Below the pieces are notes generated by a model. It worked only from the letters and a program-made list of their open reading frames with translations, was not told where the DNA came from and did no database searches. This document shows, piece by piece, positions 1,297 to 54,709 of a stretch of DNA of 64,000 nt. This DNA comes from Candidatus Microgenomates bacterium (GTDB taxonomy: Bacteria; Patescibacteriota; Microgenomatia; UBA8517; JACQJR01), in contig JACQJR010000001.1 of NCBI GenBank assembly GCA_016204995.1, forward strand, positions 167,793 to 231,792, in the 5' to 3' direction. How positions within the stretch are numbered: position 1 is the stretch's first letter; each line of letters starts with the position of its first letter. Both the position numbers and the translations under genes were made by a program.

Positions 1297-2371
1297 TATT
1301 AAAAACTGAATAAGGTAAGACAAAATGCCATTTATATCCTTTCTTTACACCTTCAACCCCCAACTTAAGAATTTTATCTAACTCCCCATATTGTTTGGTA
1401 AAAAAGTAATATGATTTTTCTTGGCTACCCCACTGCATTTTAAAATTATAAGGTCCTCCGCCTCGCGGCTTGGAGGATTCCCAGTTAAAAACTGCAAAGC
1501 TATTTTTTTTAGCCCAAAGGAGTAAATGGTTTATGAGCAAATATATCGCACCGTTTTTATATGATTCTTTAGAGCCGGAAATCATATATGTATCCACAAC
1601 CTCTTGATGATAAATTGTTAAACATCCTGCTTCAATTTTTTTACCATGCTTCACCAAAAAAAATTTTGCTCTATTTTTAGGAATAAAGTATTTTACAGCA
1701 CCTTGAAAAATTTCTTCTGGTAATGGCTCAAGATTGATGGATCTATGTCTTTCTTGGTGGATTTTATACCATTTTTTTATTTCCGCCTGATCTATTGATT
1801 CCTCCACAACTAATTTATCTAACAAGGCTTTTTTAAGCATTCTTTTCAAATTATTTCTAAAATGTGAATTAGTAAGTACCGGTTTATTCAAGTCAATAAA
1901 AAGCGTGTAGTTTTCTAGCTCCCAGGTTGGTTGAAAATATTTTCTATAAAGATTTTCATCCGGAATAAATGGAGAAGAAATAATTGTTACTAAAACGCAA
2001 TTTTTCCTTTGGGCGATATCTTCCACACCTTTTATTAATAGATTAAAAATTTCTTCTCTTTGACTTTGGTTATTTATCAACGCTCCTCCTAGTGGTCCTG
2101 GATAAGGAATAGAATTAATAATGTTGCCAAATTTAGAATTATATACATAGATTGGTAAAATACCGACAATCTTTTGGTTGTTTTTTACTAAAACATAGAT
2201 TGACTCATCAGTTTTAAAATCATTAATAGTATTTCTCCACTCTAGAGTTTGCTGGAAAAAAGCCCATGGACATTCATCCAAAAATTTCTCACACTCTTTT
2301 TCTAATTGAGCATTGCCCTTTAAAAGGTATTCTACTTTAAGTTCTTTAGAAATCACATTTTTACTTTTCAT
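1283..2371 (-). CDS. FemAB-like / GNAT-fold acyl(aminoacyl)transferase family protein (hypothetical)
   Basis: 362 aa, soluble. Its length and general composition resemble FemAB/BioF2-like acetyltransferase domain proteins often found in polysaccharide loci. No diagnostic motif was verified. Confidence 0.3.
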   Translation of the reverse strand: MKSKNVISKELKVEYLLKGNAQLEKECEKFLDECPWAFFQQTLEWRNTINDFKTDESIYVLVKNNQKIVGILPIYVYNSKFGNIINSIPYPGPLGGALINNQSQREEIFNLLIKGVEDIAQRKNCVLVTIISSPFIPDENLYRKYFQPTWELENYTLFIDLNKPVLTNSHFRNNLKRMLKKALLDKLVVEESIDQAEIKKWYKIHQERHRSINLEPLPEEIFQGAVKYFIPKNRAKFFLVKHGKKIEAGCLTIYHQEVVDTYMISGSKESYKNGAIYLLINHLLLWAKKNSFAVFNWESSKPRGGGPYNFKMQWGSQEKSYYFFTKQYGELDKILKLGVEGVKKGYKWHFVLPYSVFNNVNL

Positions 2372-2426
2372 AATTAAATTGTAGTAATAAACAATATTGT
2401 TAAGTATACTATATATGATTTTCTAA

Positions 2427-3224
2427 ATGGATTCTGTTGATTTTGCTATTATTCCTGCCGCCGGTAAAGGTTCTAGATGGGACCCCATCTCTTCTTTTGT
2501 CCCCAAGGAAATGCTCCCTTTGAATGGGACGCCTGTCATAGAATTGGTTATTCGTGAAGCAATTGAATCAAATGTCAAGAAAATAATTATAGTAATAAAT
2601 AAGGAAAAAGAAGTAATTAGAAACTTTATTAATTCTAGAAGCAACTTAAACAAATCAGCAGACTTTTATTTTGTTTATCAGGACAAACCGTTAGGAGTAA
2701 TAGATGCAGTCTACCGCGCCAGAAGTATATTAAAAGGAAAAAACTTTGCTTTACTTTTCCCTGATATGCCCTCTTATTACCAACAAATTCCACCATTGAA
2801 ACAAACTTTAGAAATTTTTAATGCTTTACCCACTGGGCATAGCGTATTGTCCTTTGCTAAATACCCCCAAAATAACATGCTTTTTTATGGAGAATTTTTA
2901 TTGAAAAAGAGAGAGAATCATTTATACGATGTCCTGCATTTATGCCCCCGCGCTAAAACTCCTACTGATATTCATCATCTAAATGACAATTTAAGAGGCG
3001 CTGGCCGTAATATCTTTTCCTTTGTTACTTTTCCTCTCATTAATCAAATTGCGGCTAAGCCATTTAAGGGAGAAATCAGTGATGCCAATCTATTGAATTT
3101 AATGTTTGAGAAAAAAATACCTATTATCGGCAAGGAGATAGATGGTTTTATCTTTGACGCGGGCACGCCAGAATTATTTGCTAAAGCTAACTGGTTTGCT
3201 ACTTTACAGAAGAAGAAATTATAA
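2427..3224 (+). CDS. Sugar-1-phosphate nucleotidylyltransferase, GalU-like (UTP--glucose-1-phosphate uridylyltransferase family)
   Basis: N-terminus AIIPAAGKGSRWDPISSFVPKEMLPL closely matches the GalU signature xIPxAGxGTRxLPxTKxxPKEMLPL. Confidence 0.55.
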   Translation: MDSVDFAIIPAAGKGSRWDPISSFVPKEMLPLNGTPVIELVIREAIESNVKKIIIVINKEKEVIRNFINSRSNLNKSADFYFVYQDKPLGVIDAVYRARSILKGKNFALLFPDMPSYYQQIPPLKQTLEIFNALPTGHSVLSFAKYPQNNMLFYGEFLLKKRENHLYDVLHLCPRAKTPTDIHHLNDNLRGAGRNIFSFVTFPLINQIAAKPFKGEISDANLLNLMFEKKIPIIGKEIDGFIFDAGTPELFAKANWFATLQKKKL

Positions 3225-3226
3225 TT

Positions 3227-4318
3227 TCACTTTTTGCCGGCCACGATATTGGCATAAGTTATGGTATCTTTCCCTGCTACCATTCTCCAATCAGGACAAG
3301 CGGCACATAATGAATTTAAGTTAAAATTACCGGTTAAATGCGCCTCTCTGATGCTATTTAAAAGAGCTGAATTCCACAAATCTTTCAACGAACCATCTTG
3401 AGGGTAATACCCGATATCAGCTTCATCTCTATCCCAAGCATGGGGACAATAAACAAACTTTAAAGATCCAGCTGTGCCACCCGTTAAACTAAAGCGAGTG
3501 AAAGGAAAAATACAAGGATAACGGTTTAATCCGTTAACTTTTCTAACTACCCCTTCTTGATCTTTCACAATCTCATCTTCACTCAAAACTTCGTTAAAAT
3601 TAGGAGTTAGACCAGCTGTTGAATTTAAGGGCCGAAACGAAACTTTATCAACTCCTAGTTTTTTTCCCAACTCCACAAAATCCTGCTGTTCATCTTGAGA
3701 TTGTTGTCTAACAATCATGGTGATCATAAATTCAGTATTTATTTGTTGATTTTCAGACAACTTATTTCTTGCCTCAACTGCTTTAGCAATGTTATCCGTC
3801 ACTGCCTTAAAGTAATTAATATGATGATATCTTTCAGGACGGACAACTCCATAAGTTTCTGCTGTAGCTGCATCCAAACTGATATTGATTAATTTAACAC
3901 CTGCCCGGCACAAGTCAGCAACTAATTTTTCCTTAAGCAGAATACCATTGGTGGTCAATCCTACATTAAAACCAAGTTCGCCAGCAGCATAAGTCAATAG
4001 CCCCTTAGCTTGCGGATGCAGAAGCGGCTCTCCATCCGCTGATATTTGTAAAGATGGCTTGGGGTCCCAAGTCTCGGCAATTTCCGTAAAAGCTTTCTTT
4101 AATAATTGCGGATTTGTGTAAAGCGGTTCCACTTCTTCGTGGTGGGCAATTTTTTCTTCACGGCGAAGTTGCTGACCAGGGTAACCACAATGTAGTTCGC
4201 ACCACAGATTACATTTTTTTGATAAATCTACTAATACCAAACTGGGAGGCAAATTTTGCCAGCTCTCAACTTCTTGTTGTGTTGGTGGTTGATTATAATT
4301 TCTCCTTAATATTTCCAT
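3227..4318 (-). CDS. Radical SAM-like enzyme with C-terminal Cys-rich (SPASM/twitch-like) region; non-canonical CX3CX3C cluster motif
   Basis: CNLWCELHC near the N-terminus. DGEPLLHP matches the GGE SAM-binding motif. TTNGILL matches the MoaA-like ribose motif. C-terminal cysteines sit in CPHAW...CAACPDW. Confidence 0.5.
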   Translation of the reverse strand: MEILRRNYNQPPTQQEVESWQNLPPSLVLVDLSKKCNLWCELHCGYPGQQLRREEKIAHHEEVEPLYTNPQLLKKAFTEIAETWDPKPSLQISADGEPLLHPQAKGLLTYAAGELGFNVGLTTNGILLKEKLVADLCRAGVKLINISLDAATAETYGVVRPERYHHINYFKAVTDNIAKAVEARNKLSENQQINTEFMITMIVRQQSQDEQQDFVELGKKLGVDKVSFRPLNSTAGLTPNFNEVLSEDEIVKDQEGVVRKVNGLNRYPCIFPFTRFSLTGGTAGSLKFVYCPHAWDRDEADIGYYPQDGSLKDLWNSALLNSIREAHLTGNFNLNSLCAACPDWRMVAGKDTITYANIVAGKK

Positions 4319-4360
4319 TTTTAACCGTAAAAATTATTTTAGTTTAGTCTATTAACATTG

Positions 4361-5413
4361 TCAATTTCTGAATGATAAGAAACCTGTTTTTTGATTATAT
4401 TTTAGTTTAATTTTCTGACTATTTTTCTTAAGAGATTTTTGGGCTGCTTCAAGTAGTATTACTAGATTAACTGCATCTTGCAAAGTAATGATTGGCATTT
4501 TCCTGCTAGTAGTCTTTATTAAAAATTCTTCAAAAACACTTTTTAATGGTTCTTTGTTAGGAATATGAGGAATCGTAATATCCCCATAACGCAAAGTAAA
4601 AAAATGTTTTAACAAACCGTCATCATGATTATTTTTTTCTATTCCCCTATCAAAAAGTTTTACTTTACCATCGCTTTGAGTATCATCAAATGATACCATT
4701 TTTTTATCTCCTACTAAAACAAAGGTTCTAGTTTTAATTGGATCTGCCCAACTAACTCTTAAGTTAAAAAGGGTGTTGTCGGCAAATTCTAAAGTTAAAA
4801 ATGCTACATCGTCAATTTTGGGTGTTAAAAAGGCCCGGCCGGCAGCAGTGATACCGGTAGGCTGTTTGTTTAATAAATGGGTAACCGTATAAATAAAATG
4901 AGTTGATAAATCCCACAGCGCCGAGACATCATTTCTGATTGGACCTAATGCAGTATAATCGCCATAGCCATAATGAATTTTACCAAGAGTATTTTTCATT
5001 ATTAATTCTTTAATCTTTTGGATAGCAGGATTAAAAATAAATGTATGATCAACCATTAAAATACTTCCGTTTTTATTGGCTATCTCTGCTAAATAAATAG
5101 CATCCCTGGCTGAAGAAGTAAGAGGTTTTTCCACTAACACATCTTTGCCTGACTGAAGTATTCTTTTAGCAATATCAAAGTGGTTGGCCGCCGGAACTGC
5201 CACGATTATCCCATCGGTACTTTGATCCTTTAGCAAATCACTTAAATTGGTAGTGGTTTTAACATAAGGATAAAATCGCTGAATTATTTTAAGTTTTTCA
5301 ATAGATAAATCGCAACACCAAACTAAATTTGCACCTTCATACTCGTGTACAATCCTGGCAAAATTTGGCCCCCAATGCCCCAATCCTACAATAGCTATAT
5401 TTTTAGTTTTCAT
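4361..5413 (-). CDS. Gfo/Idh/MocA family NAD(P)-dependent oxidoreductase (WbpB-like sugar 3-dehydrogenase candidate)
   Basis: N-terminal Rossmann motif IAIVGLGHWGPNFARIV and EKPL motif. Paralog of 13446..14465. Confidence 0.7.
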   Translation of the reverse strand: MKTKNIAIVGLGHWGPNFARIVHEYEGANLVWCCDLSIEKLKIIQRFYPYVKTTTNLSDLLKDQSTDGIIVAVPAANHFDIAKRILQSGKDVLVEKPLTSSARDAIYLAEIANKNGSILMVDHTFIFNPAIQKIKELIMKNTLGKIHYGYGDYTALGPIRNDVSALWDLSTHFIYTVTHLLNKQPTGITAAGRAFLTPKIDDVAFLTLEFADNTLFNLRVSWADPIKTRTFVLVGDKKMVSFDDTQSDGKVKLFDRGIEKNNHDDGLLKHFFTLRYGDITIPHIPNKEPLKSVFEEFLIKTTSRKMPIITLQDAVNLVILLEAAQKSLKKNSQKIKLKYNQKTGFLSFRN

Positions 5414-6104
5414 TGAAAGTAATTTTTATCCAGAACGTAAAAAGCTCTTTTAGATATTTTAAGTAACGCACTGGATTACCATACTTTGATCTACCCGCCG
5501 ATCTTTTATAAAATTTGGCTTTAACTTGAGCAATATTATATCCTCTGCGATAAAGGTTAACAAGTAGTTCTGCCGGCATAAAAGTATCTCTGGCAGCAAT
5601 TTTGACATTTTTTAATATTTCCCTTTTATAGGCTTGCACAAAGTGAAAATCTTCAATGGGAGTTCTAAAAAATAACTTTACCAGTAGAAAGCTGGTCATT
5701 GATGTTAATTTTCTAAAATTAGAATTAGCTGATCTGTCTTGACGGACAAAAACTATTACATCCGCGGTTTTAAATTGTTCTCCTGCTCTTTTTAAATCAT
5801 CAAGATTAAAAGCTTGATCGGCAGAATTAGTCAAAATCCATTCGTATCTGGCTTTTTTAAATCCATCCCAAATTGCCCGACCAACCCCTAAATTTTCTTT
5901 ATGAGTTATGCCTTTAACTTTTTTATATTTTTTAATTATTCCTTGGAGAATTTTGGCTGTATTATCTGTAGACCCATCATCAATCACGATAATTTCATAC
6001 TTTTTAGTAAATTTTCTTAGTTTTTGGTTATAAATTTGGATACTATCTTTAATAGCCGCTTCCTCATTAAAAGCCGGCACAATTAAAGAAAGGGAATTTA
6101 GCAT
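5403..6104 (-). CDS. GT2 family glycosyltransferase, Dpm1-like (polyprenyl-phosphate sugar synthase candidate)
   Basis: LIVPAFNEE...IIVIDDGSTDNT...ENLGVGRA motifs of GT-A/GT2. Confidence 0.75.
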   Translation of the reverse strand: MLNSLSLIVPAFNEEAAIKDSIQIYNQKLRKFTKKYEIIVIDDGSTDNTAKILQGIIKKYKKVKGITHKENLGVGRAIWDGFKKARYEWILTNSADQAFNLDDLKRAGEQFKTADVIVFVRQDRSANSNFRKLTSMTSFLLVKLFFRTPIEDFHFVQAYKREILKNVKIAARDTFMPAELLVNLYRRGYNIAQVKAKFYKRSAGRSKYGNPVRYLKYLKELFTFWIKITFNEN

Positions 6105-6124
6105 GACGTAATCTTAACATAAAA

Positions 6125-6153
6125 TTGAGATTTTCATAGATACACGTTATACT
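6125..6153 (+). promoter_or_regulatory. Putative sigma70-like promoter (-35 TTGAGA, 17-nt spacer, -10 TATACT) ending 5 nt before the ATG at 6159; implies a leaderless transcript
   Basis: Hexamers read directly from the sequence. No Shine-Dalgarno between the -10 box and the ATG. Confidence 0.35.
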
Positions 6154-6158
6154 AGGTT

Positions 6159-7727
6159 ATGGAAAATCTTAAAAATAACGAGCAAATAGTCTTACAAACC
6201 GAACGGCAAGATGCCAAATTAAGATTTCAATTAAATGAACATAACGCTGAAGAGTATTTAGAGAGCACAGCTTTGGTAAAAGATAAACCCTGGAGCGAGG
6301 AAGACGTAGAGCAGACTAAAAGATTTTTGTTGGCTTGTGCTCCTTTTGCTCATCCTAAAGTTTTTCCCAGCTATTGGGAACATTTAATTATCGCCTCCCT
6401 TTACGGCAAGGAATTAGCCAGAAGAACTAAAAACTCTGATTTTGATCCCTATGAAGCCCAAACATTAATGCTATTACATGATTTAGGCAGGTTAGTTGCG
6501 CCACACCGCTATTTAAGAAATGATGTAATAGAATACTCATTATTAAAACATGCCGGAGAAAGAGCAGATTTACTTAAAACATCTTTCATTTTACCAGAAT
6601 TAATTGGAGTGAAAGTTCCCGGTATCCCAGAAACTCAAAAACCATTTACTAAACTTGCAGATATGACTCTTGCTCAAAGAATTATTGACGTAGCAGATAA
6701 TTTAAGTAAAAGGACTGCCACGGGACAATTATGGACGATTAACGATCTACTAGATTATTCTGCCAAGATGGTAGCGAATTATTCGGCGGAGGGGAAAATT
6801 TGGGCCTCGGAAAGAACCGGCTTAAAAGCTATCGCCGATCCTCCTGCAGGAAAAGGCAAACTAAGATTTGCTGCTCACCTAGTCATAGAAGAAGTAGCAT
6901 GGTTAAAACAAGCTTATGGGATAGATTTTGATAAATTAAGAGATAAAATAACACAAGAATGGAACAATCGGGAGAATCAAGAATTTCTACTTGCTCTTAA
7001 AGATGCCCAGGAAACTTTAGATCAAAATGTAGACCGATTACTGGGTAAGCCTAATATTACTACTGTTGTTTTTGACGTAGGAGATGTGTTATTTCAAGGA
7101 AAAAAGAGTGAAGTATTAGATGATGAACTAATTAGAAGAATATCAGCTTTTTTCAGTTGTTCACCAGAAAATACATTAACAGCCTTTAGAACTTTACATG
7201 TTAAAGGCATGACCGGCCAAATTTCTGAAAGAGAGTATTTGGAACATTTTTGGAAAATTGCCGGAAAAACTCCGCCAGATGGTATAAAAGAATTACGCGT
7301 TCCATTTTTACATCCTGATGTTTACCAACCAAACAGAGAAATGCAAGACATCGTTAAGAACCTATCTCAAAATCCAAACCTTACAATATTCCTTTTCTCC
7401 AATGTTGTATCTGTCTTAACTCCTGTAGTTATTGCGTGCCTAAAAGAATTTTACCCAGAAATATCAGAAAGTAATTATTTATTTTCTAATCGGATAGGCG
7501 TAGCTAAAGGCGTTGACGATAAAGCCGCTTTCCAGTTAGTTTTGGAAATAATTCACCCAGATGATCCGCAGAAAATTTTATTTATTGATGATAATGAAAA
7601 ATATACCACTGCCGCTAGATCGCTTTATAATATTCGCGGCTTCACCTTTCGCGAAAATCCTTATAGGGATCAAACAGCAGATAAAAGATTTAAGCAAGAA
7701 CTCCAAAAAGCAGAGTTAATATCATAA
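6159..7727 (+). CDS. HD-domain phosphohydrolase fused to a C-terminal HAD-like hydrolase domain
   Basis: H...LLHDLGR...D(VADNL) HD motifs in the N-terminal half. C-terminal half has VVFDVGDVL (variant motif I), FLFSNV (S/T), VAKG (K) and FIDDNEKY (DD), consistent with the HAD fold. Confidence 0.45.
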   Translation: MENLKNNEQIVLQTERQDAKLRFQLNEHNAEEYLESTALVKDKPWSEEDVEQTKRFLLACAPFAHPKVFPSYWEHLIIASLYGKELARRTKNSDFDPYEAQTLMLLHDLGRLVAPHRYLRNDVIEYSLLKHAGERADLLKTSFILPELIGVKVPGIPETQKPFTKLADMTLAQRIIDVADNLSKRTATGQLWTINDLLDYSAKMVANYSAEGKIWASERTGLKAIADPPAGKGKLRFAAHLVIEEVAWLKQAYGIDFDKLRDKITQEWNNRENQEFLLALKDAQETLDQNVDRLLGKPNITTVVFDVGDVLFQGKKSEVLDDELIRRISAFFSCSPENTLTAFRTLHVKGMTGQISEREYLEHFWKIAGKTPPDGIKELRVPFLHPDVYQPNREMQDIVKNLSQNPNLTIFLFSNVVSVLTPVVIACLKEFYPEISESNYLFSNRIGVAKGVDDKAAFQLVLEIIHPDDPQKILFIDDNEKYTTAARSLYNIRGFTFRENPYRDQTADKRFKQELQKAELIS

Positions 7728-19463: not shown

Positions 19464-21664
19464 TTATGGTCCAAGAAATTCTATATCATCTAGATAAAAT
19501 GTACCGCTGTTTTTTGTACCAATCATATTAAAGGACAGTATAGCAAAGCGGGCATCGGGCGGAGCTTTGGCAGTAACTGATATTTTATACCATTTAGATT
19601 GACCGAAAACTCTAGGTGATAAAGCTATCACCTCTCCTGGTAAATTAATATTGGCATCTTCCTTGTTAAAGAAATCTATCCGTAAAAACCCATCGCGTTC
19701 TACCTCATTTAAAAATCCCACTGGTTTTAACCAACCAGTTAAAGTATAAACCTCTGATGGCGTAACAGAAATTTTTGGACTCATTAGTCTAGGACCGCGA
19801 TAATAAATATTTTCTAAATCATACTCTAAAGAGCCTTTTCCACTATGTCCTTCCTTTAAACTAAAAGAAATATTAATTTTACTTTTATTACCTAATTCCT
19901 CTAAACGCCAAAAATCTTTTTCTTGTTCTTTATCAAAAGAAAATCTTTTAATTAAGTTATTAGCCGTTGGCAAAGAAGTAGGCAAGGCAGAAAAATACAA
20001 GCCAGACATGTCACACATACTATCTCTAGTAAAACTTTTTAATAAGTTTGCCCGACTAAAATATTCCCTCATTGCTAAAGTAACATAATAATTTTGGTAA
20101 AGAGGTTGGGGAATAATAAAAAAATTATTTTCAAACATATAAGTAAAACGTGATAAAATCCCAGTATTAATAAAAAAATAATCAAACTTTCGCTCTTGTA
20201 GTTCTGTTAAAAAGAAATCTGTATCAGGCCTCACTTCCGTAACTTGATAAGATTTTTTGGGTAAGGCAATGGGAGAAACTTGGGCTATTTTTTTATCAGC
20301 TGAAATATTTTCGTTAATCCATTTAACGCTAAATTCATCAGGGCTTACCCCACCGCAAGACCAACTACTAACAACAGAAGTTGTGATTGGGTGATAAAGA
20401 ACCAACCCTGATATGACAAAAAATATCATCATGACATTAACCCTCTTTTTAATTATTTTTCCCAAATTATCCTTAAGATTTAACAAAAAAATAGCCGCGA
20501 ATATTGATAAAAATGGCACCAGTGGTAAATTCAACCTTTCATAAACCGCTGGTATATAAAAAGAGTTATAGATAAAGGTAAATAGAGGAATAATTAGTAA
20601 AAATAAAGTTTTTTTAAGATGACGAAATAAAGATAAAAAAATCCCCCCAATTGATACTAAAGCTAAACCTGGCCCTAAAACTCGAAAGATTAAAAATGAT
20701 GAATGAAATTCTTTAAATCCAGTAGGAATAAGAGTTGATAAACTAGGAATACTAGACTTACCGCCTGAAGAAATATAAGATAGGATAGACGTCATAAAAG
20801 CCGTTATAGAAGTCCCATACCATAAAAACTGAGCTCCAGCTTCTTCTTGCAGAATATGACGACTATCGGCACTAAAGAATAAGTATGGCACACCAATAAA
20901 TATTCCCACGGGAATGGCGAGAAGTCCCAAAGAAAATTTTGATAGTCTTTTTGATAATTTATCTTTATCTAAAAAAATAACAAATGGATAAGCAAGAAAA
21001 GCCAAAGGAAAATATTTTATAGTAGAGGACAAACCAATCAAAAAACCACTAGCCAAATACCATTTCAGGCGGCTAGTAGTTACAGCTTTAACCATAAAGA
21101 GTAATGATAAAAGGATGAGAAAGATAAATGAAACATCGGTGGTAATATAATGAGAATCCCTGACATGCAAAGGGTTTAAGGCGAAAATTAAAGCTGATAA
21201 AAAACCGATTTTTGGATTAAATAATTTTTTAGCGATTAGATAAACGATCAAAACGCTTATTGTGCCAATTATGGCTGTCAATGCTCTACCCTCTAAGAAA
21301 GATAAGGAATTGATATCACTAGTTACATATTCAATAAAATCTATGGCTTTGTTATTGAATGATGTAGGCGGAGGTTGAGAAATTTTTAAATTGGTTAAAA
21401 TTATCCCGATAATCCAAAAGGGAATGTAAACTAAAGATTGTAAATAAAAAATCCAAGAACCATATTTATAAGCATGCGGCTCAAAATCTCCATTTGTAAT
21501 AATGTTATAAAAAAGGGCTTTCGCATGTTTTATAATATAAGCCTCATCTGTATGGGCAATATTAGGAACTAGACCGATAAAGCGAACCAGTAGGGCAACA
21601 GCAAGAATGATAAATAAAAGCTTATTATTTTTTAAAGCACGCCGAATTCCCCTCATTAGCATTA
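19464..21664 (-). CDS. GT-C glycosyltransferase, PMT/ArnT-like (group A) with C-terminal CBM-like beta-sandwich domain
   Basis: The loop-1 motif AHTDEAY carries the conserved Asp-Glu. NPLHVRDSHY follows. About 12 TM helices. C-terminal GFLRIDFF...W.K...APP...F...YLDDIEFL is shared with 24921..27164 and 32236..34386. Start placed at MLMRG (complement 21664). The ORF-track start was 21803. Confidence 0.6.
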
Positions 21665-21711
21665 GGCGTATTATACTAGATTTTAATCGTGTATAATATC
21701 TAACATAAATT

Positions 21712-22779
21712 ATGCCAATAACAAAAACTAGTTTAGTTTCCTGTGTAAAAGTAAAAGTTGGAAAAGATCCTAAATTAGTTTTTAAGGCTGTTGCCCAAGC
21801 CATGAAGCTTGCGCATTGGGAAAAATATGTTAAGGGGCGTAATATTGTTTTAAAAGTGAATGTGGTGTGGGATAAACTTTACCCTAGTTGTACTACTACT
21901 CCCATGGTAATAGAAGGAGTCATAAAAACATTGCTCCAGAAGTTTCCCAATGCTAAAATCACCATTGTTGACACCGATACTCCTGGAATCATGCATGCCC
22001 ATTACTCCTTTAGGAATTTAGGTATTAATTACATGGCTAAAAAGTACGGCATCAAGACTGTCAATCTTACCAATACCAGCTTCCGCACCGTCAACCTTAA
22101 CGGCGAAAAACTTAAAAAATTTAAAGTAAGTAAAGTTCTACTTGATGCAGATACAATTATTACCATTCCCGTGATGAAGACCCATTCTATCTCAACAGTA
22201 TCATTGAGTCTTAAAAATCAATGGGGATGTATTCATGATTTAAGACATAACTTTCATCTCTATTTAGCCAAAGCCATCGGGGACGTAAATAATTTTTATA
22301 AAAAGAAGGTTTCGTTTGTAGTTATGGACGGATTATTTGGCATGGAAGGGAAGGGCCCAAAGAATGGAAAACCAGTTAAGGTAGGATTTATTTTTGCTTC
22401 ACCTGACCGCGTAGCTCTTGATACTCTGGTTGCCCAATCCATGGGGTTTGACCCCCAAAAGGTTGATCATATAACTCATTGCCAAAACTTAAAAATTGGC
22501 ACTATGAACTATAAAATCGTTGGGTCAAAACCACCCAAGATGAAATTTGCCAGTCCCCATGATTTTCAGTTAACCTTTTGGGTAGAAATGTTTTTGAGAA
22601 AACTTGGGCCATTTTATGAAAAATTATTTTTCCAAACGAATATTCTTTACCCTTTACGCCTGGCAGCCAGAGTATACAATGACATTTGGTACTATTTTAT
22701 TGGAAGTAAAAACAAGGACAGGATGATGAAAACAGATTTTGGTCAGATGTGGCAAGAATACTTAAATAATGCTTCTTGA
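21712..22779 (+). CDS. DUF362-like domain protein (hypothetical)
   Basis: [21 protein letters not shown] resembles the conserved DUF362 core. Confidence 0.35.
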
Positions 22780-22804
22780 CTAAAATTAGTAAATTGACTA
22801 CATT
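22776..22804 (+). promoter_or_regulatory. Putative promoter (-35 TTGACT, 17-nt spacer, -10 TACATT) upstream of the ATG at 22818
   Basis: Read from the sequence. The -10 box is weak. Confidence 0.3.
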
Positions 22805-22817
22805 ACAAGTAATTAAA

Positions 22818-23951
22818 ATGCCAAAAAACGGTGAGCTAAAAAAACACCCCGCCACAAAATATGCACTCATCACTGGATGCTCTGGGCTGGTTGGCTCGGG
22901 AGCTGTCCGTTTCTTCTGTGAGCGAGACTTTCAAATAATCGGCATAGATAATAATTTTAGAGAGTACTTTTTCGGTAAAGATGCTAGTACGGATTGGATG
23001 AGAAGACAACTTGAGGAAAAATATCCCAAACAGTTCCAACATTTTTCTATTGATATTCGCGATTACCTAACTCTTGAGCAAATTTTTAAAAGATTTAATT
23101 TTGAATTAGTAATTCATACTGCTGCTCAACCCTCTCATGACTGGGCGGCTCGCGAACCTTTAACAGATTTTTCCATTAACGCCGTCGGCACCTCCAACAT
23201 GCTTGAGTTAACTAGATTATATGCTCCTAATTCTGTTTTCATCTTCACCTCTACTAATAAGGTATACGGGGATTTACCCAATGAACTTCCTCTTATTGAA
23301 CTAGAAAAACGTTGGGAAATTAAGCCTACGCATAGATACTCTCGCGGCATTGATGAAACAATGGATATAGATAATAGTGTTCATAGCCTTTTTGGTGCCT
23401 CAAAAGTGGCAGCCGATGTGCTTGTCCAGGAATACGGAAAATATTTTGGCTTGAAGACGGGGGTGTTTAGAGGCGGTTGCCTCACAGGTCCAGCCCACTC
23501 CGGCACTATGCTCCATGGCTTTTTAGCCTATCTTGTTAAAGCAATCGCCAAGGGAATTCCCTACACCATCTTTGGATACAAGGGAAAGCAAGTTAGGGAT
23601 AACATCCACTCCTCCGACCTTATCAATGCCTTTTATCATTTTTACCAAAATCCCCGTCCTGGTGAAGTCTATAATATGGGTGGATCTCGCCACTCCAATG
23701 TTTCTATGCTGGAGGCAATCGCGAAAATCGAAAAATTACTTAAGAAAAAAGGCAATATAAAATATTCTGATGATAATAGAACTGGAGATCATATTTGGTA
23801 TATTTCAGACGTTTCAAAGTTCAAAACTCACTATCCTAATTGGAATTACAAATATGATGGAGACCAAATATTAGAAGAACTATGTAAATCTATGGTGGAT
23901 AAAAGCTATTCTGTCAAAAAAGAAGAAGCCTTTGTAATTAACGAAAGGTAA
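22818..23951 (+). CDS. NAD-dependent sugar epimerase (SDR family; CDP-paratose/tyvelose 2-epimerase-like)
   Basis: [12 protein letters not shown] Rossmann motif. YGASK. Start at MPKNGE. The ORF-track start was 22776. Confidence 0.6.
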
Positions 23952-23958
23952 AATAAAC

Positions 23959-23982
23959 TACTCCGTAGTAAACTACGGAGTA
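23959..23982 (+). terminator. Perfect 10-bp stem / 4-nt loop hairpin (TACTCCGTAG-TAAA-CTACGGAGTA) 8 nt after the stop codon; candidate intrinsic terminator lacking a strong U-tract
   Basis: Inverted repeat read directly from the sequence. Confidence 0.35.
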
Positions 23983-24060: not shown

Positions 24061-24089
24061 TTGCATTTCTATTAAAAACGGTCTATAAT
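24061..24089 (+). promoter_or_regulatory. Putative sigma70-like promoter (-35 TTGCAT, 17-nt spacer, -10 TATAAT) 9 nt upstream of the ATG at 24099
   Basis: Consensus -10 box. No Shine-Dalgarno. Confidence 0.4.
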
Positions 24090-24098
24090 TTTTTTACT

Positions 24099-24860
24099 AT
24101 GCAAGAAAATTTGAAAGGTGGCGAAAATTCCCGTATAGAGGACTTGCCGGTACCAGAATTTAATCTCACAGATGAACAAAAGTTGATATTAACCGGCGTA
24201 GCTGACTGGGTCAGTAATTTTTTTAAAAACGCCGAAGAAAATAACCGTGTGGTTATGGGAGGACACGGTTTTGACCATAATCAGCGTACTGCAGGGATAG
24301 CAGCCGTAATCGCCACACGCGAAGGCTATTCTCCCTTTCTACCAGCGTTGACGAGTTTGATATTTGATATTGGCAGAACCAGTACTGATCCTCGAGCGCA
24401 TAACTTTCGCCATGGAGAATTAAGCCGTGAGATGGCACACGATTTTATTATAGGATTACCTTTAGCGGATGAAGAGAAAACCTTAGTATTAAATGCGATT
24501 GAAGATCACCCCAAACTTAATGATCAGATAGTAGGAGAAAGAAGAAACTGGCTACAAATGATTTTGCAAGATGCCGATAGATTAGATACACTTGGACCGA
24601 TTGGGATAGCAAGAGCCAGCTCCAATCGCTGGAGACTACCACTATTTTCCGATCAAATTGCCATAGGAACCCCTGAAGATACCATAACTACAAGTTTCCA
24701 GGATTATGCTTATCGCGTCCCCGTATGGATTGAGTCTATGTGGACAAAAACCGGTTTAGAGATTACACAAGCTAGAATGCCATATATGCAAGCTGCAATA
24801 GCTGAAATAAGAAAAGAAGCTCAATATATGCATGATGCTTTCGGCAAACTCTTTGAATAA
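24099..24860 (+). CDS. HD-domain superfamily protein (variant: FDIGR in place of the HDLGR motif)
   Basis: GFDHNQRTAGIA (His), LIFDIGRTS and QDADRLDTLG (Asp) match the HD-domain layout. Paralog of 6159..7727 and 53336..54709. Start chosen at the ATG that follows the promoter; the ORF-track start was 24051. Confidence 0.45.
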   Translation: MQENLKGGENSRIEDLPVPEFNLTDEQKLILTGVADWVSNFFKNAEENNRVVMGGHGFDHNQRTAGIAAVIATREGYSPFLPALTSLIFDIGRTSTDPRAHNFRHGELSREMAHDFIIGLPLADEEKTLVLNAIEDHPKLNDQIVGERRNWLQMILQDADRLDTLGPIGIARASSNRWRLPLFSDQIAIGTPEDTITTSFQDYAYRVPVWIESMWTKTGLEITQARMPYMQAAIAEIRKEAQYMHDAFGKLFE

Positions 24861-24884: not shown

Positions 24885-24913
24885 TTGATGCAAATAATCG
24901 GATAAGTTATACT
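24885..24913 (+). promoter_or_regulatory. Putative promoter (-35 TTGATG, 17-nt spacer, -10 TATACT) ending 7 nt before the GTG start at 24921
   Basis: Read from the sequence. Confidence 0.3.
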
Positions 24914-24920
24914 GCCTGTT

Positions 24921-27164
24921 GTGAGGAGAAAAATTAGATACTTTGCCGACCAAATTTTTAAAAAGAAAAAGGCAATAACATTAATCTTTATCTTAGGGCT
25001 AAGCCTTAGGCTTCTAGGTACCTATCCCGGTTATCCCCTCACCCATCCTGATGAATCAACTATCCAAACTGCCTCTATTGAAATTGCTTTTAAGGGCAAT
25101 TTCTTAACCAAGGCTTATTATTACGGACAGTTGTTACCGCTTATTTATGCCTTTAGTTACCTTTTTTACCTTCCTCTAGCAGCTATTTTCTTTTTACCTA
25201 ATCTTATTACCACTCGGGGTCTAAATCATTTCGGAGAAGAATTTTATAAATTTCTTACCCAAGGTTTCCCTCTACACCAACAAACATTTTGGAGTGTTAA
25301 TTATTGGGCAAGGTACGATAGCGCCATTATTAGCTCTTTAACTATTATTGTTGCCTACTTATTGGGAAAAAAATTATTTAATAAACATATTGGTTTAACA
25401 GTTGCCTTTTTAATTGCTATTAATTACCGACATGTTTTAAGCAGTAGATTAATTTTAGCTGATGCACCGGCAGCCTTTTTTGCGATACTGGCCGTTCTTT
25501 TATTTACTAGGCTTTTACAAAAAACATCTTTAAAAAACTATCTTCTAGCTGGTGTGGGTTTGGGTTTATCCTTATCTGTAAAATATTTTATTTATGTCAT
25601 TCCGGCTTTTTTATTATGCCATCTTTCCTCTTCCTTAAAAACAAAAGGGAATGTGTTAATAAGATTGGTAAAAGTTATTACAAATTATAAATTATTTTTA
25701 TCAGTTCTTACGGCAGTAATTTTACTATTAATTATTAATCCCTATTTTTTATTTGCCCAAAAAGAAGCCGCTTATTATTGGATAGCCAATTCTGCCAGAT
25801 ATGGCTTAAGATTTTCTCTAGAGACACTGCAAAATAATAATTTTTCCTTCTACTCTCTTTACTATTTATTTTATTACGGCTTAAGTCCAATCATTAGTAT
25901 TCTTACTATCTTAGGCTTTATCTGGAGCTTTATTCGTTATCCTAAGGCAGCATTGATTATCTCTATTGTTATCATTCCCTATCTTTATACTTTTTTAGTA
26001 ATTTCTGGAACAGGCATTGTCAGAAACTATGCTGCCATTATTCCGCTTCTATTATTTTTCCCTGCTGTAATTATTGCTGACTTAATTTTATTTTTGCACC
26101 GAATTAAATTTTCTACCATCATTATCACCTTATTAATCTTAACTATCGGCTACCAATCATTAAAATATAGTCTAACTAGCGGATATTATTTGACTCAAGA
26201 GCAAAATATGATTTCTCTTTACAAGTGGATGGATAAAAATTTACCAGAGGATAGCAAAATTATTGGTTCAAGTGGCATCTTCTATCCTGCTGGTCGTAAT
26301 TTTGAGGGAATTAAATTAGATGTCAATTTAAATAACCTAATGAGTATGGAAGAGTTGCAAGAGCAACCAACTCCCTGGCTTATTTTTAGTTCTATCCCTC
26401 AAGATGTGACAGAAAACTTTCTATTGAATAATGAAATTGCCAGAAAATCTTTTATCAGCAATTTCTTGCCTTCATATCTTACTAATAATACTTATAACAC
26501 TCTAGTCTTTAAGGAGCTAGCAGATTTTAGGGTAGCAGAATTTGCCAAACCTTTAACTCAAGATCCCCCATTTATGGTAATTAAAATCCCGCAGTTTGAC
26601 CAAGCTAAAAAAGAGACAACAGTAGCCAGATTTAAATTTACTAACTCTCAACAATTAAATAATTGGTCTTATAATTTCTATCCTACTGATACTTATCAAT
26701 ATACATATGAAAATGGCGTTGTTAATTTCACCCAAAAAACTCCTCAATGTAATACTTTACTTACCCAACTATCTTCAGATAAAACTTATATTATCCCAAA
26801 CCAATGGTATAGCCTCAAAGCTTTAGCCAAACGACAAGCTAATAGTATTTACCAAAGAGCCAGGAATGGATTTTTTAGATTAGATTTTTATGACGGAAAT
26901 GACAATTTAATTAAAACCTATGTCACTCATCCACTTAATTCTAATGTAGGCTGGCAGAAACTATCGGCTGCCGGAATTGCACCGCCGTATGCTACTTATG
27001 CCAAAATTACCTTTCAGATTGATGCCTGTTTTGAGGAAGAAAGCTATAGCTTTAATAACATCACTCTTTTTACTACTAAACAAATACCTAGTATTGACAC
27101 AACCACCTATCATTTCTATATGCAACCCGCGCCTAGTAGTTTTTACTGGTTACCCCAACTTTAA
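24921..27164 (+). CDS. GT-C glycosyltransferase, PMT/ArnT-like (group A) with C-terminal CBM-like domain
   Basis: Loop-1 motif THPDEST. AINYRHVLSSRL. Multi-TM. C-terminal FFRLDFYDGND...GWQKL...APPYATYAKITFQ. GTG start. Confidence 0.6.
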   Translation: MRRKIRYFADQIFKKKKAITLIFILGLSLRLLGTYPGYPLTHPDESTIQTASIEIAFKGNFLTKAYYYGQLLPLIYAFSYLFYLPLAAIFFLPNLITTRGLNHFGEEFYKFLTQGFPLHQQTFWSVNYWARYDSAIISSLTIIVAYLLGKKLFNKHIGLTVAFLIAINYRHVLSSRLILADAPAAFFAILAVLLFTRLLQKTSLKNYLLAGVGLGLSLSVKYFIYVIPAFLLCHLSSSLKTKGNVLIRLVKVITNYKLFLSVLTAVILLLIINPYFLFAQKEAAYYWIANSARYGLRFSLETLQNNNFSFYSLYYLFYYGLSPIISILTILGFIWSFIRYPKAALIISIVIIPYLYTFLVISGTGIVRNYAAIIPLLLFFPAVIIADLILFLHRIKFSTIIITLLILTIGYQSLKYSLTSGYYLTQEQNMISLYKWMDKNLPEDSKIIGSSGIFYPAGRNFEGIKLDVNLNNLMSMEELQEQPTPWLIFSSIPQDVTENFLLNNEIARKSFISNFLPSYLTNNTYNTLVFKELADFRVAEFAKPLTQDPPFMVIKIPQFDQAKKETTVARFKFTNSQQLNNWSYNFYPTDTYQYTYENGVVNFTQKTPQCNTLLTQLSSDKTYIIPNQWYSLKALAKRQANSIYQRARNGFFRLDFYDGNDNLIKTYVTHPLNSNVGWQKLSAAGIAPPYATYAKITFQIDACFEEESYSFNNITLFTTKQIPSIDTTTYHFYMQPAPSSFYWLPQL

Positions 27165-30846: not shown

Positions 30847-30987
30847 TAGTTATCTTCAAAACAATTCTGCTTTTTGCTAATGAAGCTCCACGGCTAAATT
30901 CTTAATTACCTTCTTTGGCTGATAAAATTAACTGAAATAGGGGATTGACATTATCTTCCATAAAATATTTAATGATATACATTAATA

Positions 30988-32199
30988 ATGGAAAGATCTA
31001 CCTTCACAGATGCTAAATCTAAACTTGAATACCATCCTCAAACTGTTGAACGCCTATTAAACAACGAACCCGTTATACCAATAAGTATGGAAGTAGATTT
31101 ATCATACTTTTGCGGTGATCAATGTACGTTTTGCCACTTTTCCTACACCCACCAGAAACCCGTTAGAACCGATGCTCTTCTCCCTATCTTAGAGAAAGTT
31201 TTCATGCCCCCCAAGCTGGCCGATGAAGTATTGAGAAAAATGAACGAAGCCGGAGTTAAATCAATTGTTTTTTCTGGAGGGGGAGAACCTACTGATAGCC
31301 CTTTCGCTTTGGAAATTTTTAAAATGGCTAAATCTTACAATCTGGAGTTAGGGATGTACACTAGGGGATTTAACCTAAAAGGTGAACTAGGAGAATTTGT
31401 GGCTAATAACTTTGAATGGGTGGTGGTCTCGCTAGATGTGACTAATCCGGAAGAGCATAAACTTATCAAAGGCACTAATGGGAAAATATTTTTGGAAAAG
31501 TTGGAAAACATCCATAACTTTTTGAAAATACCTAATCGGCATGCCAATATTAGTGTTAGCGCCATGGTGGATACCGGCCACCTAGAAAATGTACCGCCAT
31601 ATCCGGAACAGCAAGATTTATTTGGAACAGATGCCACCCAAGTTACTAAATTAGAACGGGATATGCTTTGGTTATTGGGGTTAGGCGCTGATGAGGTACA
31701 GATTAGACCAATTATAGATACCGGATCATATAAAGAGCAAAGAGAATCTCACCAAATGAAGGGGATGGCTTTTATGACTGATAAACAAATCTGGCAGGAA
31801 CATTATAGTTGGATTCCTAAAGTAGTATCAATTCTGGAAAGATATAATAGTCTAGCTGGCCTAAATACGTCAATAGATAAATTTCATCAAGTCTATGAAG
31901 GGGAAAGTGGAGAGGAGACATGTTATGGTATGGTAATATCAGCTGGTTTGGTTGCCAGTGATGGAAAAGTCTACAAATGCGTCAACACACGATCTATTCC
32001 GGAAAAAATTATTGGCGATTTAAAAACCCAATCCATGGAAGAGATTTTTCTTTCCGAATCTTTAGATCGCTCCATTGATAGTTTTTGCAGGGTCGGATGT
32101 CGAGGATGTAAAGTCAATGAAGTTTTTAATAGACTATCTCATTCCGAAACAGTATTCTTATCACCACGACAAGGTGTCAAACATCCCAATTTTATTTAG
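30988..32199 (+). CDS. Radical SAM enzyme with C-terminal auxiliary-cluster (SPASM/twitch-like) cysteines
   Basis: Canonical CGDQCTFC (CX3CXFC). FSGGGEPT GGE motif. C-terminal C-x18-C...CRVGCRGC. Confidence 0.65.
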   Translation: MERSTFTDAKSKLEYHPQTVERLLNNEPVIPISMEVDLSYFCGDQCTFCHFSYTHQKPVRTDALLPILEKVFMPPKLADEVLRKMNEAGVKSIVFSGGGEPTDSPFALEIFKMAKSYNLELGMYTRGFNLKGELGEFVANNFEWVVVSLDVTNPEEHKLIKGTNGKIFLEKLENIHNFLKIPNRHANISVSAMVDTGHLENVPPYPEQQDLFGTDATQVTKLERDMLWLLGLGADEVQIRPIIDTGSYKEQRESHQMKGMAFMTDKQIWQEHYSWIPKVVSILERYNSLAGLNTSIDKFHQVYEGESGEETCYGMVISAGLVASDGKVYKCVNTRSIPEKIIGDLKTQSMEEIFLSESLDRSIDSFCRVGCRGCKVNEVFNRLSHSETVFLSPRQGVKHPNFI

Positions 32200-41458: not shown

Positions 41459-43619
<2,161 letters not shown>

Positions 43620-43634
43620 TTAATTAGAATAAAG

Positions 43635-44474
43635 TCAATGCTTCTTGGAATATAAAATTGACGCTATTAATCCCAATAATGCTCCAGTCATCTCCACACT
43701 CCTCATTAATAAAAGTCCAAAGGCTAATACCGGATGACTAATTAATTTACGCCACTTCCTAAAAAAGACTGGTCTAAATAACAAATTACCTTGGCTGCTA
43801 ATCATTTCCGGATGTCTTTGTAAATAACTTAAGGCATGAGAAGCATAATAGAATTTCTTTTTAGCAGAGCGAGTTATGGAAAATCTTCCTTCATTATGCA
43901 AGATAAAACTTTTAATACGAGAAATTTTTACTCCATCTTTTTTCATTCTTAAAGGTAAATCCCAATCTTCCGGTCCGGTAATTGATAAATCATAGCCACC
44001 AGATTTTCGAAAAATATTTGTCCTAAAAAAACGTGCTGCCTCAATATCTGACTCTCCCAAGTAAAATTCTCGTTCATAAACTTTAACTTTAGTCCAGAAA
44101 CCTTCACCAAAGGACTTTTCAGGAATTACCAAAGCCCCTATCAAGGGGGACTTCTCTAGTTTATTTACGCATTGTTCCACTACCAGCTTAGTTAATCTCA
44201 TATCCGAATCAAGTATTAAAATATATTTACCACTAGCCTGCTTTACACCAAAATTTCTTTGGGCCGACCTCTCTGGACCTTTGTTGTAGACTTTTCTGGT
44301 GTATTCTCTAGCAATTTCGGTAGTTCTATCTGTTGATTTATTATCAACTAAAATTATTTCTATTTTTGGATAGGTCTGTTTTCTAATACTTTCTAAAAGA
44401 GCACTTAAAGTCGTAGCAGAATTTCGGGTGGTAATTATGACAGAAACCAAAGGAAGCTTTTTCAATTTTAACAT
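43635..44474 (-). CDS. GT2 family glycosyltransferase
   Basis: VSVIITTRNS...IILVDNKSTDRT...ILILDSD. Confidence 0.75.
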   Translation of the reverse strand: MLKLKKLPLVSVIITTRNSATTLSALLESIRKQTYPKIEIILVDNKSTDRTTEIAREYTRKVYNKGPERSAQRNFGVKQASGKYILILDSDMRLTKLVVEQCVNKLEKSPLIGALVIPEKSFGEGFWTKVKVYEREFYLGESDIEAARFFRTNIFRKSGGYDLSITGPEDWDLPLRMKKDGVKISRIKSFILHNEGRFSITRSAKKKFYYASHALSYLQRHPEMISSQGNLLFRPVFFRKWRKLISHPVLAFGLLLMRSVEMTGALLGLIASILYSKKH

Positions 44475-44518
44475 TTAGTTTTGATATGATATACTCATTA
44501 GACTGCAATTTGCAACCA

Positions 44519-53265: not shown

Positions 53266-53299
53266 AGAGTGTTTTTAAAGAAGAAATTACTACAAAAAT

Positions 53300-53328
53300 T
53301 TGCATATAAAAGGTAGTTTTGCTAGAAT
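53300..53328 (+). promoter_or_regulatory. Putative promoter (-35 TTGCAT, 17-nt spacer, -10 TAGAAT) ending 7 nt before the ATG at 53336
   Basis: Read from the sequence. No Shine-Dalgarno. Confidence 0.35.
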
Positions 53329-53335
53329 TCTCAAT

Positions 53336-54709
53336 ATGTCACTCAATCCTGAAATAGTAAAAAAGGCTATTCAGCCACCAGTTAATTTATTAAAAAGAGT
53401 GGACTTTTTTAATTTATCATTCACCAAACTTATTACTAGAAAGCCAGAAAAAACCTCAGAAGAGTTGGATCAAGCTTTCTATAGTTTAAGCAGATGGCTT
53501 AATAATCAAGAAAATTCTAACTATGCTGCCATTTTAGTTAGAGAAACAGTAGAATTTTTACAGAATAACGAACAGGACATACTTTCTGAAAGTCACAATA
53601 TTATCCATGACGCTGAAGCTATCACTTGTCTATTAGACGATAAAGGACGAGAAATTGAAATAGATAATGCCACTATTTTTATTGCCACCGCCGTTACATT
53701 GTTACATGATCTGGGCCGAACAACTGAAAAGATAGTTATTGATCAGCCACTTGAAAATCAAACACAACTCCACCATGATCAATTAAGCTATAGAGCAGCC
53801 AGAAAAATATTAAAGGAAATTAGTAAAGATTCAGAGTTACCAGAGGATATAAAATCAGCCTTAGAATTATTAATTTTTCATGGACTCCGTCATAGTGGAG
53901 AGTTAAATCAAAAACCTTATATTGGCTTGTCTTATGATCTTGACCGTCGACAACTAACCGGTTCCACTACTGTAGTTCGCGATATCCCCTTTTTTGGTGG
54001 TTGGCAAAATATTAGTTTATCAACCGATGAGATAAAAAACTGGCCTGCTGGCTACCTTTATCCTCACACCTTTTTTCTTCAACAAAGATTTGCTAGTAAT
54101 ATTTTTAGAGATGAACCGTTAAAGGAAAAACATCAACTTGACGAGGTTTATAACAAACTAGCCGTTGAAGGATCAACTATAGTACTTTTAGCCTGTGGAG
54201 ATAATCAAGATGCCAAAGAATTGGCTTTTGACGTTGATTTAGGATTAGTTGATATTCCAGAGACCAGCATAACTGATAAAGGTGGTAGGCGTTGGTGGCC
54301 TAAAAGAAGACTTCCTGCAGGCACTTTAGCTAAATCGGCAGAGGAAGCAAGAAATATTGAAGAACTAATAAATAGCAAACCATTGTCTAAGATAGACTTT
54401 GAATATATTATGGAAAGTTATCTGGAAGCTTATACCACATTTATAGATGAAAATCACCTGTATCAAATAAAAGAAAGCATTAGAGAATTTGACCAAGATG
54501 ATAGGATAAAATGGGCAAGGGTGCTTTTCTACTCTCATCGTAAAAACCAAGAAAGATATGCGCACAGAATTAAAATTTTTTGGCAAGAGAAGAATAGGGG
54601 AAGCTTCTTAGGAAAGATAGCTGAACCCTTCATTGATGTGCTAGCGGCAAAACATCATCAACGCGAGAATTTGGAGAAAGTGTTCAAATCCTATTGGTCA
54701 AACATTTAA
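53336..54709 (+). CDS. HD-domain phosphohydrolase (paralog of the 6159..7727 N-terminal domain)
   Basis: IIHDAEA. LLHDLGR. FHGLRH. YDLDRR. The ORF-track start at 53300 is a TTG; the ATG at 53336 is preferred. Confidence 0.5.
   Translation: MSLNPEIVKKAIQPPVNLLKRVDFFNLSFTKLITRKPEKTSEELDQAFYSLSRWLNNQENSNYAAILVRETVEFLQNNEQDILSESHNIIHDAEAITCLLDDKGREIEIDNATIFIATAVTLLHDLGRTTEKIVIDQPLENQTQLHHDQLSYRAARKILKEISKDSELPEDIKSALELLIFHGLRHSGELNQKPYIGLSYDLDRRQLTGSTTVVRDIPFFGGWQNISLSTDEIKNWPAGYLYPHTFFLQQRFASNIFRDEPLKEKHQLDEVYNKLAVEGSTIVLLACGDNQDAKELAFDVDLGLVDIPETSITDKGGRRWWPKRRLPAGTLAKSAEEARNIEELINSKPLSKIDFEYIMESYLEAYTTFIDENHLYQIKESIREFDQDDRIKWARVLFYSHRKNQERYAHRIKIFWQEKNRGSFLGKIAEPFIDVLAAKHHQRENLEKVFKSYWSNI

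Follow-up and report, generated by a model that had tools for sequence, protein, structure and literature searches.

Sigma-70-type promoters abut start codons in a Microgenomates glycosylation island and predict leaderless or very short-leadered mRNAs

In a 64-kb stretch of DNA from a Candidatus Microgenomates bacterium (contig JACQJR010000001.1, positions 167,793 to 231,792; here called the window and numbered 1-64000), the genes starting at 6159, 24099, 24921 and 53336 are each preceded by a sigma-70-type promoter that sits almost directly on the start codon. At all four, a -35 and a -10 hexamer separated by 17 nucleotides (nt) are placed such that the -10 hexamer ends 5-9 nt before the start codon; this distance, counted as the nt separating the last base of the -10 hexamer from the first base of the start codon, is referred to as d. 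Such promoters occur far above expectation before genes that open an operon, are absent before internal genes, and were found again in orthologues from related Microgenomates. The mRNAs made from these start-adjacent housekeeping promoters are probably leaderless or carry leaders of 1-5 nt. The host is a member of the candidate phyla radiation (CPR, or Patescibacteria): proteins of the window are identical to Candidatus Microgenomates entries (locus tags HY404_00910/00980/01085) and to GCA_964556865.1, and the nearest species representative for the 24099 gene is Microgenomates group bacterium Gr01-1014_5, with 63% identity. The G+C content of the window is 30-39% (A+T about 66%) and the gene content is mainly glycosyltransferase and sugar-nucleotide genes. 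Our sample consists of this one 64-kb glycosylation island and about 100 kb of syntenic islands of relatives.

The initial annotation of this DNA had listed five gene starts with a pair at this distance, the fifth being 22818. When the letters were re-read all quoted hexamers were present in their places, and the geometry held at 6159, 24099, 24921 and 53336 (Table 1). At 22818 the TTGACT/TACATT pair is real, but its -10 hexamer ends 13 nt before the ATG and thus falls outside the claimed range. Each of the four remaining promoters has a TTGACA-like -35 hexamer, a 17-nt spacer (16-18 nt being usual for sigma-70) and a TATAAT-like -10 hexamer with A at position 2 and T at position 6, and they score 10.3-12.6 bits. 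The reported lack of a Shine-Dalgarno (SD) sequence was borne out as well, with SD duplex energies of -1.8, -2.4, -1.0 and +0.2 kcal/mol at the four starts, calculated here and throughout with the canonical anti-SD, which was assumed and not read from the host genome.

Sigma-70-like pairs as such are not enriched in this DNA. A generic scanner run over 20-34 kb found 53 pairs as compared to 54.7 in shuffles, and a position-weight scan gave 132 pairs of at least 9 bits in the window, mostly intragenic. Since pair density is at chance and the location relative to gene starts is non-random, it is the position that carries the signal. The 48 genes of the window were divided into 25 internal genes and 23 that open an operon, the latter being those with a divergent neighbour or with a gap of 36 nt or more. 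Pairs of at least 10 bits at d=5-9 precede 4 of the 23 first genes, where 0.07 would be expected, and a count of four was not reached in any of 2000 dinucleotide-shuffled versions of these 60-nt upstream sequences. For -10 boxes alone (at least 4.5 bits, d=5-9) the count was 8 of 23 against an expected 1.86 (p ~5e-4), and before the internal genes neither a pair nor a -10 box alone was seen at this distance (0/25). This was further supported by a count of ATG and GTG triplets on both strands of the window, where 14 of 2762 have such a pair; four are the gene starts and ten fall among the other 2758, giving a background frequency of 0.36% and a probability of ~1e-6 for at least 4 of 23. Across the glycosylation islands sampled, the fraction of first genes with a start-adjacent signal is 17-35% in the window and 20% in the related contigs.

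The initial annotation had also proposed to survey -10-to-start distances, and this was done on the window and the related contigs. The boxes are indeed clustered close to the starts; they form a continuum and not two separate classes. In the histogram for first genes the -10 boxes fall mostly at d=5-11 or d=14-22 and hardly ever farther upstream, and promoter-to-start distances run from 5 to about 22 nt, being densest at 6-9 nt and having their mode at 7 in the pooled set of 54 first genes.

Conservation was analyzed in DNA surrounding homologues of three of the four proteins, taken from related Microgenomates contigs through exact homologue look-ups; the sole orthologue of the 24921 gene lies on L088, the contig of the closest 24099 homologue. 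Upstream regions were compared by anchoring them on the start codons. All nine orthologous starts have a pair of at least 8.5 bits at d=5-12, where 0.12 would be expected, and in six of the nine d is 5-9. The spacers stay within 17-18 nt and two promoters (L089 and L003) come near the full consensus, at protein identities of 35-77% and in upstream DNA that was too diverged to align. That the geometry was kept while the flanking DNA diverged is a signature of function. The 24921 gene and its L088 orthologue share the spacer, d and also the unusual GTG start, and in L093 the promoter falls within the 3'-terminal part of the gene before it. Among the non-orthologous first genes of the related contigs (n=25), pairs of at least 8.5 bits numbered five at d=5-9, four at 10-14, three at 15-19, none at 20-24 and one at 25-29, with ~0.27 expected per bin.

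Table 1. Promoters, genes and other features in the window and in related contigs (handles beginning with L).
Feature	Location	Strand	Sequence elements	d (nt)	Remarks
6159 promoter and start	6125..6161	+	TTGAGA 6125-6130, 17 nt, TATACT 6148-6153, AGGTT, ATG	5	12.6 bits
6159 gene	6159-7727	+			HD+HAD-like; 522-aa NCBI protein
24099 promoter and start	24061..24101	+	TTGCAT 24061-24066, 17 nt, TATAAT 24084-24089, TTTTTTACT, ATG	9	10.9 bits (position weight matrix)
24099 gene	24099-24860	+			HD-like hydrolase; 253-aa NCBI protein
24921 promoter and start	24885..24923	+	TTGATG 24885-24890, 17 nt, TATACT 24908-24913, GCCTGTT, GTG	7	11.8 bits
24921 gene	24921-27164	+			PMT-family glycosyltransferase; GTG start
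53336 promoter and start	53300..53338	+	TTGCAT 53300-53305, 17 nt, TAGAAT 53323-53328, TCTCAAT, ATG	7	10.3 bits
53336 gene	53336-54709	+			457-aa HD-motif protein; 457-aa gene calls
24099 orthologue	L088		TTTACA-17-TACGAT	6	window d=9
24099 orthologue	L003		TTGACA-17-TATGAT	10	window d=9
24099 orthologue	L089		TTGACA-17-TATAAT	12	window d=9
24099 orthologue	L090		TTGACA-17-TAAACT	12	window d=9
24921 orthologue	L088		TTGATA-17-TACACT, TCTTTTT, GTG	7	window d=7
53336 orthologue	L091		TTGTAA-17-TATAAT	6	window d=7; 42-43% identity
53336 orthologue	L092		TTGTAA-17-TATAAT	6	window d=7; 42-43% identity
6159 orthologue	L094		TTGTAT-17-TATAAT	7	window d=5
6159 orthologue	L093		TTAACA-17-TATAAT	5	window d=5
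22818 promoter	22776..22820	+	TTGACT-17-TACATT (22776-22804), ATG 22818	13	12.3 bits
30988 alternative pair	30945-30973 (site 30945..30990)	+	TTGACA-17-TTTAAT	14	perfect -35; poor -10 without A at position 2
Divergent pair 2371(-)/2427(+)	2369..2429	both	TACAAT 2378-2383 (minus); TATGAT 2414-2419	6; 7	55-bp spacer; no good -35
6104 -10-only box	6102..6116	-	TAAGAT 6111-6116, before ATG 6104	6	divergent partner of 6159
21662 -10-only box	21660..21675	-	TATAAT 21670-21675, before ATG 21662	7	PMT-family gene
29513 -10-only box	29513	-	TATCAT	9	
Contrast: fcl-like gene promoter	43590..43638	-	TTGACT-17-TATATT	17	predicted leader of ~10-11 nt containing AAGGA
Contrast: best promoter of the window	4316..4364	-	TTGACA-17-TAAAAT	17	14.7 bits; no SD
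4-nt gene overlaps	18418-18421, 27882-27885, 38253-38256, 40748-40751, 49103-49106				from open reading frame coordinates

The L089 orthologue of the 24099 gene (9842-10621) has an in-frame TAA and the gene caller reports only its 206-amino-acid (aa) C-terminal part; it is either a pseudogene or the product of an assembly error. Another L089 frame (3417-4985, 522 aa), a candidate orthologue of the 6159 gene by its length, was dropped as BLASTP showed it to be unrelated. A metagenome scan with a single protein gave no matches, and a scan with an alignment returned only HD proteins of unrelated bacteria (24-36% identical), which are useless for the Microgenomates lineage.

Across 49 bacteria the transcription start site (TSS) is centred 7 bp 3' of the -10 hexamer, with a preference for a purine flanked by pyrimidines, and the lengths of 5' untranslated regions usually peak at 20-49 nt (PMC12641261). 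On this basis we infer both the TSSs and the mode of ribosome recruitment. Housekeeping RpoD/sigma-70 promoters of the form TTGnnn-17-TAnnnT would abut the start codons of operon-first genes, and a -10 hexamer ending 5-8 nt before an ATG or GTG would make the start-codon purine the first transcribed base. At 6159, 24921 and 53336 this purine stands at position 6-8 counted from the -10 hexamer and a pyrimidine precedes it in all three; by the 7-nt rule these mRNAs are thus predicted to start with the initiation codon itself. For 24099, an A located 3 nt before the ATG occupies the canonical +7 position. Transcription there is predicted to begin either at this A (24096), which would give a leader of about 3 nt, or at the ATG itself, the two outcomes being equally likely. 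The initial annotation had predicted transcripts that start at or within 3 nt of the initiation codon. The geometry, the enrichment, the restriction to first genes and all nine orthologues argue for this, although it does not extend to 22818, where the predicted leader is about 6-7 nt. A leader of 0-3 nt has no room for an SD, so a leaderless route of translation would be required, in which a ribosome carrying initiator tRNA would bind the 5'-terminal start codon directly. The start-adjacent set probably represents one end of a general habit, with recognisable promoters almost all 5-22 nt from the start, SD sequences not enriched, and predicted leaders between 0 and about 16 nt long.

SD-like pairing of -4.5 kcal/mol or lower was found before 5 of the 48 genes, as compared to 10.5% of random positions, and the region looks SD-poor overall. 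As pairing is at background also before internal genes, a non-SD mechanism would be needed anyway. The initial annotation had proposed that SD and leaderless modes coexist, pointing to an AAGGA before fcl at 43592. The AAGGA is present and this fcl-like gene is the only operon-first gene with pairing of -4.5 kcal/mol or lower, but with pairing at the random rate the case for coexistence is weak, and the AAGGA may be a chance match. The best match of the 43592 gene is GDP-L-fucose synthase, below the curated cut-off, and gmd is found at 45472 in the same glycosylation island. Internal operon genes often overlap their predecessor by exactly 4 nt (the ATGA-type junction being deduced from coordinates and not read), which suggests translational coupling without SD sites. 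CPR lineages except part of Parcubacteria keep the anti-SD motif, and their bS1 is short, with 3-4 domains (PMC9297842). Folding of the first 40 nt was uninformative, with no difference between the candidate leaderless mRNAs (mean -2.1 kcal/mol) and other genes (-2.6 kcal/mol).

Several points weigh against the explanation by start-adjacent promoters and leaderless mRNAs. The evidence is drawn from glycosylation islands only, and the leaderless transcripts are predictions from DNA. The distances are broad (5-22 nt) without a sharp spike at 6-7 nt, and many units are probably short-leadered rather than leaderless; for the three 24099 orthologues with d=10-12, and perhaps for 24099 itself (d=9), a leader of 3-6 nt would be likelier than none. 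Moreover, the 24921 gene starts with GTG, which in E. coli works poorly as a leaderless start codon, the 24099 and 24921 genes follow same-strand genes and may be transcribed by read-through into leadered transcripts, another promoter-like site is found 72 nt before 53336, and the -10-only cases have no -35 partner.

A variant of this explanation accepts the promoters as real and places initiation 1-6 nt upstream of the start codon, the resulting mRNAs being translated by an SD-independent 30S pathway with an A/U-rich unstructured 5' end and the assistance of bS1. It draws on the continuum of distances from 5 to 22 nt, on 24099 with its canonical +7 purine 3 nt before the ATG and its orthologues at d=10-12, on the need for a non-SD mechanism given that SD is not enriched even before internal genes, and on the 3-4 bS1 domains that CPR retain (PMC9297842). 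On the other hand, the modal d is about 6-7 nt and at some sites all bases between the -10 hexamer and the start are pyrimidines (TCTTTTT before the GTG in L088), which makes the start-codon purine the first one available. In addition, an operational definition of leaderless as a leader of 5 nt or less covers most such cases. As a general account we consider ultrashort leaders unlikely, and for the cases with d of 9 or more they remain a live variant.

It could also be that the start-proximal promoters are secondary and that most expression comes from upstream promoters or read-through, on leadered or polycistronic mRNAs. The 22818, 24099 and 24921 genes follow one another on the same strand, with intergenic distances of 38, 147 and 60 nt, a plus-strand U tract is missing from the hairpin at 23959-23982, and the additional site upstream of 53336 (TTGAAA-16-TATCAT) could serve as a promoter. 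However, these starts are preceded neither by an SD nor by any other ribosome-binding signal that could be recognised, and the exact conservation of the -10-to-start distance would be unexpected for a minor promoter. We therefore regard this as a rather improbable account of the promoters, one that is compatible with leaderless initiation and does not exclude it.

If instead the annotated starts were wrong and the true starts were located farther downstream, the mRNAs would be of the ordinary leadered kind. Start codons in a metagenome-assembled genome are predictions, and 24099 has an in-frame TTG 12 nt downstream. Against this, the N-termini of homologues align at the same Met or Val for all four genes. 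The first Met of the 6159 protein is invariant in an alignment of 12 homologues, the 24099 start is backed by 37 homologues (MQENL aligned to MSERL), VRRKI of the 24921 protein aligns to VKKKI with the Val encoded by GTG in both, and MSLNPE of the 53336 protein aligns to MTDLEP. The start codons also match the gene calls of independent public assemblies and the NCBI annotation (253, 457 and 522 aa), and no further in-frame start exists within 100 nt at 6159 or 24921, which makes misplaced starts very improbable. Chance matches in AT-rich intergenic DNA, which the initial annotation had named as a refuting outcome to be judged against a background frequency, are more improbable still. In their favour, TAnnnT is common at 66% A+T and pair density is as expected (53 vs 54.7, with most of the 132 pairs in genes); against them, shuffles never reach the observed count, internal genes have no such pair, the background of 0.36% compares with 4 of 23 first genes, and all nine orthologues keep both the pair and the distance.

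The 22818 promoter, whose -35 hexamer overlaps the stop codon of the upstream gene, would belong to a short-leader class. The TATACA box at 30976-30981 (d=6), offered by the initial annotation as a possible sixth case before the ATG at 30988, is unconvincing, as its last position is not the near-invariant T. Beyond the earlier list, -10-only cases were found at 2371(-), 2427, 6104(-), 21662(-) and 29513(-). The divergent pair at 44474-44486 has an intergenic spacer of just 11 bp, and TTGCAA-18-TATCAT (d=11) for its minus-strand gene sits within the first codons of the plus-strand gene. A perfect TATAAT at 53163-53170 (minus) ends 2 nt before the ATG at 53162, too close for that start codon, and the start itself is backed by a paralogue at 51172, whose N-terminus is similar. 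The second promoter-like site near 53336 (region 53236-53316) ends at 53263 and is followed 5 nt later by a 15-codon open reading frame with a GTG start (53269); the two could represent a tandem promoter or a tiny leaderless reading frame. The hairpin at 23959-23982 is perfect over 10 bp (TACTCCGTAG-TAAA-CTACGGAGTA) and begins 8 nt past the stop of gene 22818-23951; it is terminator-like, with a T-rich run on the opposite strand.

An HD-type 'LLHDxGR' motif is present in the products of three of the four best leaderless candidates (6159-7727, 24099-24860 and 53336-54709). For the 6159 protein there is a Pfam HD match (1.7e-6) and a weak HAD match, and the 53336 and 24099 families were linked by hhalign with a probability of 37% (E=3.6e-4). 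These genes may form a co-regulated phosphohydrolase set in the glycan island. A shared operator was considered for the -35 regions of 24099 and 53336, which have AATTTGCAT in common, and was rejected as chance, with 3 occurrences as compared to 2.7 expected. The island as a whole is very large, fills the window and extends at least 10 kb past its end (L085/L084 extensions); it includes multiple PMT/PMT_2 GT-C membrane glycosyltransferases, many GT2/GT4 enzymes, radical SAM enzymes and three or more 800-aa F5/F8 type C (discoidin) proteins. No sigma factor gene is present among the genes of the 64-kb window, and a tRNA scan and an Rfam scan of its full length gave no matches.

The arrangement is similar to that of the group C gene starts of GeneMarkS-2, in which a Pribnow box lies 6-8 nt from first-gene starts in 25-50% of operons of Actinobacteria and Deinococcus-Thermus (PMC6028130). 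As in group C (Mycobacterium, Streptomyces, Corynebacterium, Deinococcus), TAnnnT lies near first-gene starts and not before internal genes, no SD is present, the start-adjacent genes would occur alongside leadered ones, and the codon at the predicted 5' end is AUG or GUG (here ATG three times and GTG once). Of the first genes, 4-8 of 23 carry the signal in the window, as do 5 of 25 in the related contigs. Unlike group C, the host is a low-GC CPR/Microgenomates bacterium and not a high-GC actinobacterium or a member of Deinococcus-Thermus, a clear TTGnnn -35 is found at 17 nt, and the distance distribution is broader. Furthermore, the other genes here are predicted to be very short-leadered, without SD enrichment, whereas group C uses SD for leadered and internal genes. 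The promoters agree with canonical sigma-70 promoters (TTGACA-17-TATAAT) in their hexamers, in the 17-nt spacer and in the TSS expected some 7 nt past the -10 box, and differ in placement, with nearly all of them here within 22 nt of the start codon.

With SD pairing at background, the region is also similar to SD-poor lineages such as Bacteroidota (group B) and Cyanobacteria. These have leaders of normal length and a non-SD motif before all genes, whereas here the predicted leaders are very short and the Bacteroidota promoter type (-33 TTTG / -7 TAnnTTTG) was not seen. Bacteroidota-type promoters, suggested by the low GC and by 'TTTGCAT', were rejected, as the host is Microgenomates and TAnnTTTG is found at none of the four -10 regions. 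The predicted lack of a leader and the lack of an SD are shared with the leaderless transcripts of archaea (group D), in which the TATA box is found ~22-26 nt upstream of the start codon (PMC6028130). A promoter of that kind was likewise rejected, since the boxes here are 5-9 nt from the start codon and paired with a bacterial -35, and the host is bacterial.

In full-text literature searches we found no description of leaderless mRNAs for Patescibacteria, the candidate phyla radiation, Saccharibacteria, Microgenomates or Parcubacteria, the only TSS dataset that we could identify for CPR (Nanosynbacter lyticus, PMID 35975994) being outside the comparison. Leaderless initiation is known elsewhere and apparently undescribed for Microgenomates and CPR; what is new is the lineage and possibly also the fact that SD usage is generally lacking as well. 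The mechanism is well known from other phyla, and the finding extends knowledge rather than offering a new principle.

CPR bacteria are almost wholly uncultured and little is known of how transcription and translation start in them. Our results predict that primary 5' ends in metatranscriptomes would be found on the start codon, and gene finders that assume SD sequences would be mis-tuned for calling gene starts in CPR. The near-consensus TTGACA-17-TATAAT promoters would be usable native promoters for genetic tools in the few cultivable relatives. We suggest, tentatively and with some doubt, that in Microgenomates, and perhaps in CPR widely, most initiation proceeds without SD, promoters lie within about 20 nt of the start, a fifth to a third of the units are leaderless, and internal genes are translated by coupling through 4-nt overlaps. 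If true, Actinobacteria and Deinococcus-Thermus would be joined by another major bacterial lineage, the third, in which leaderless initiation is pervasive, and this might be linked to the reduced ribosomes (loss of uL1/bL9/uL30, short bS1) and the compact genomes of these bacteria.

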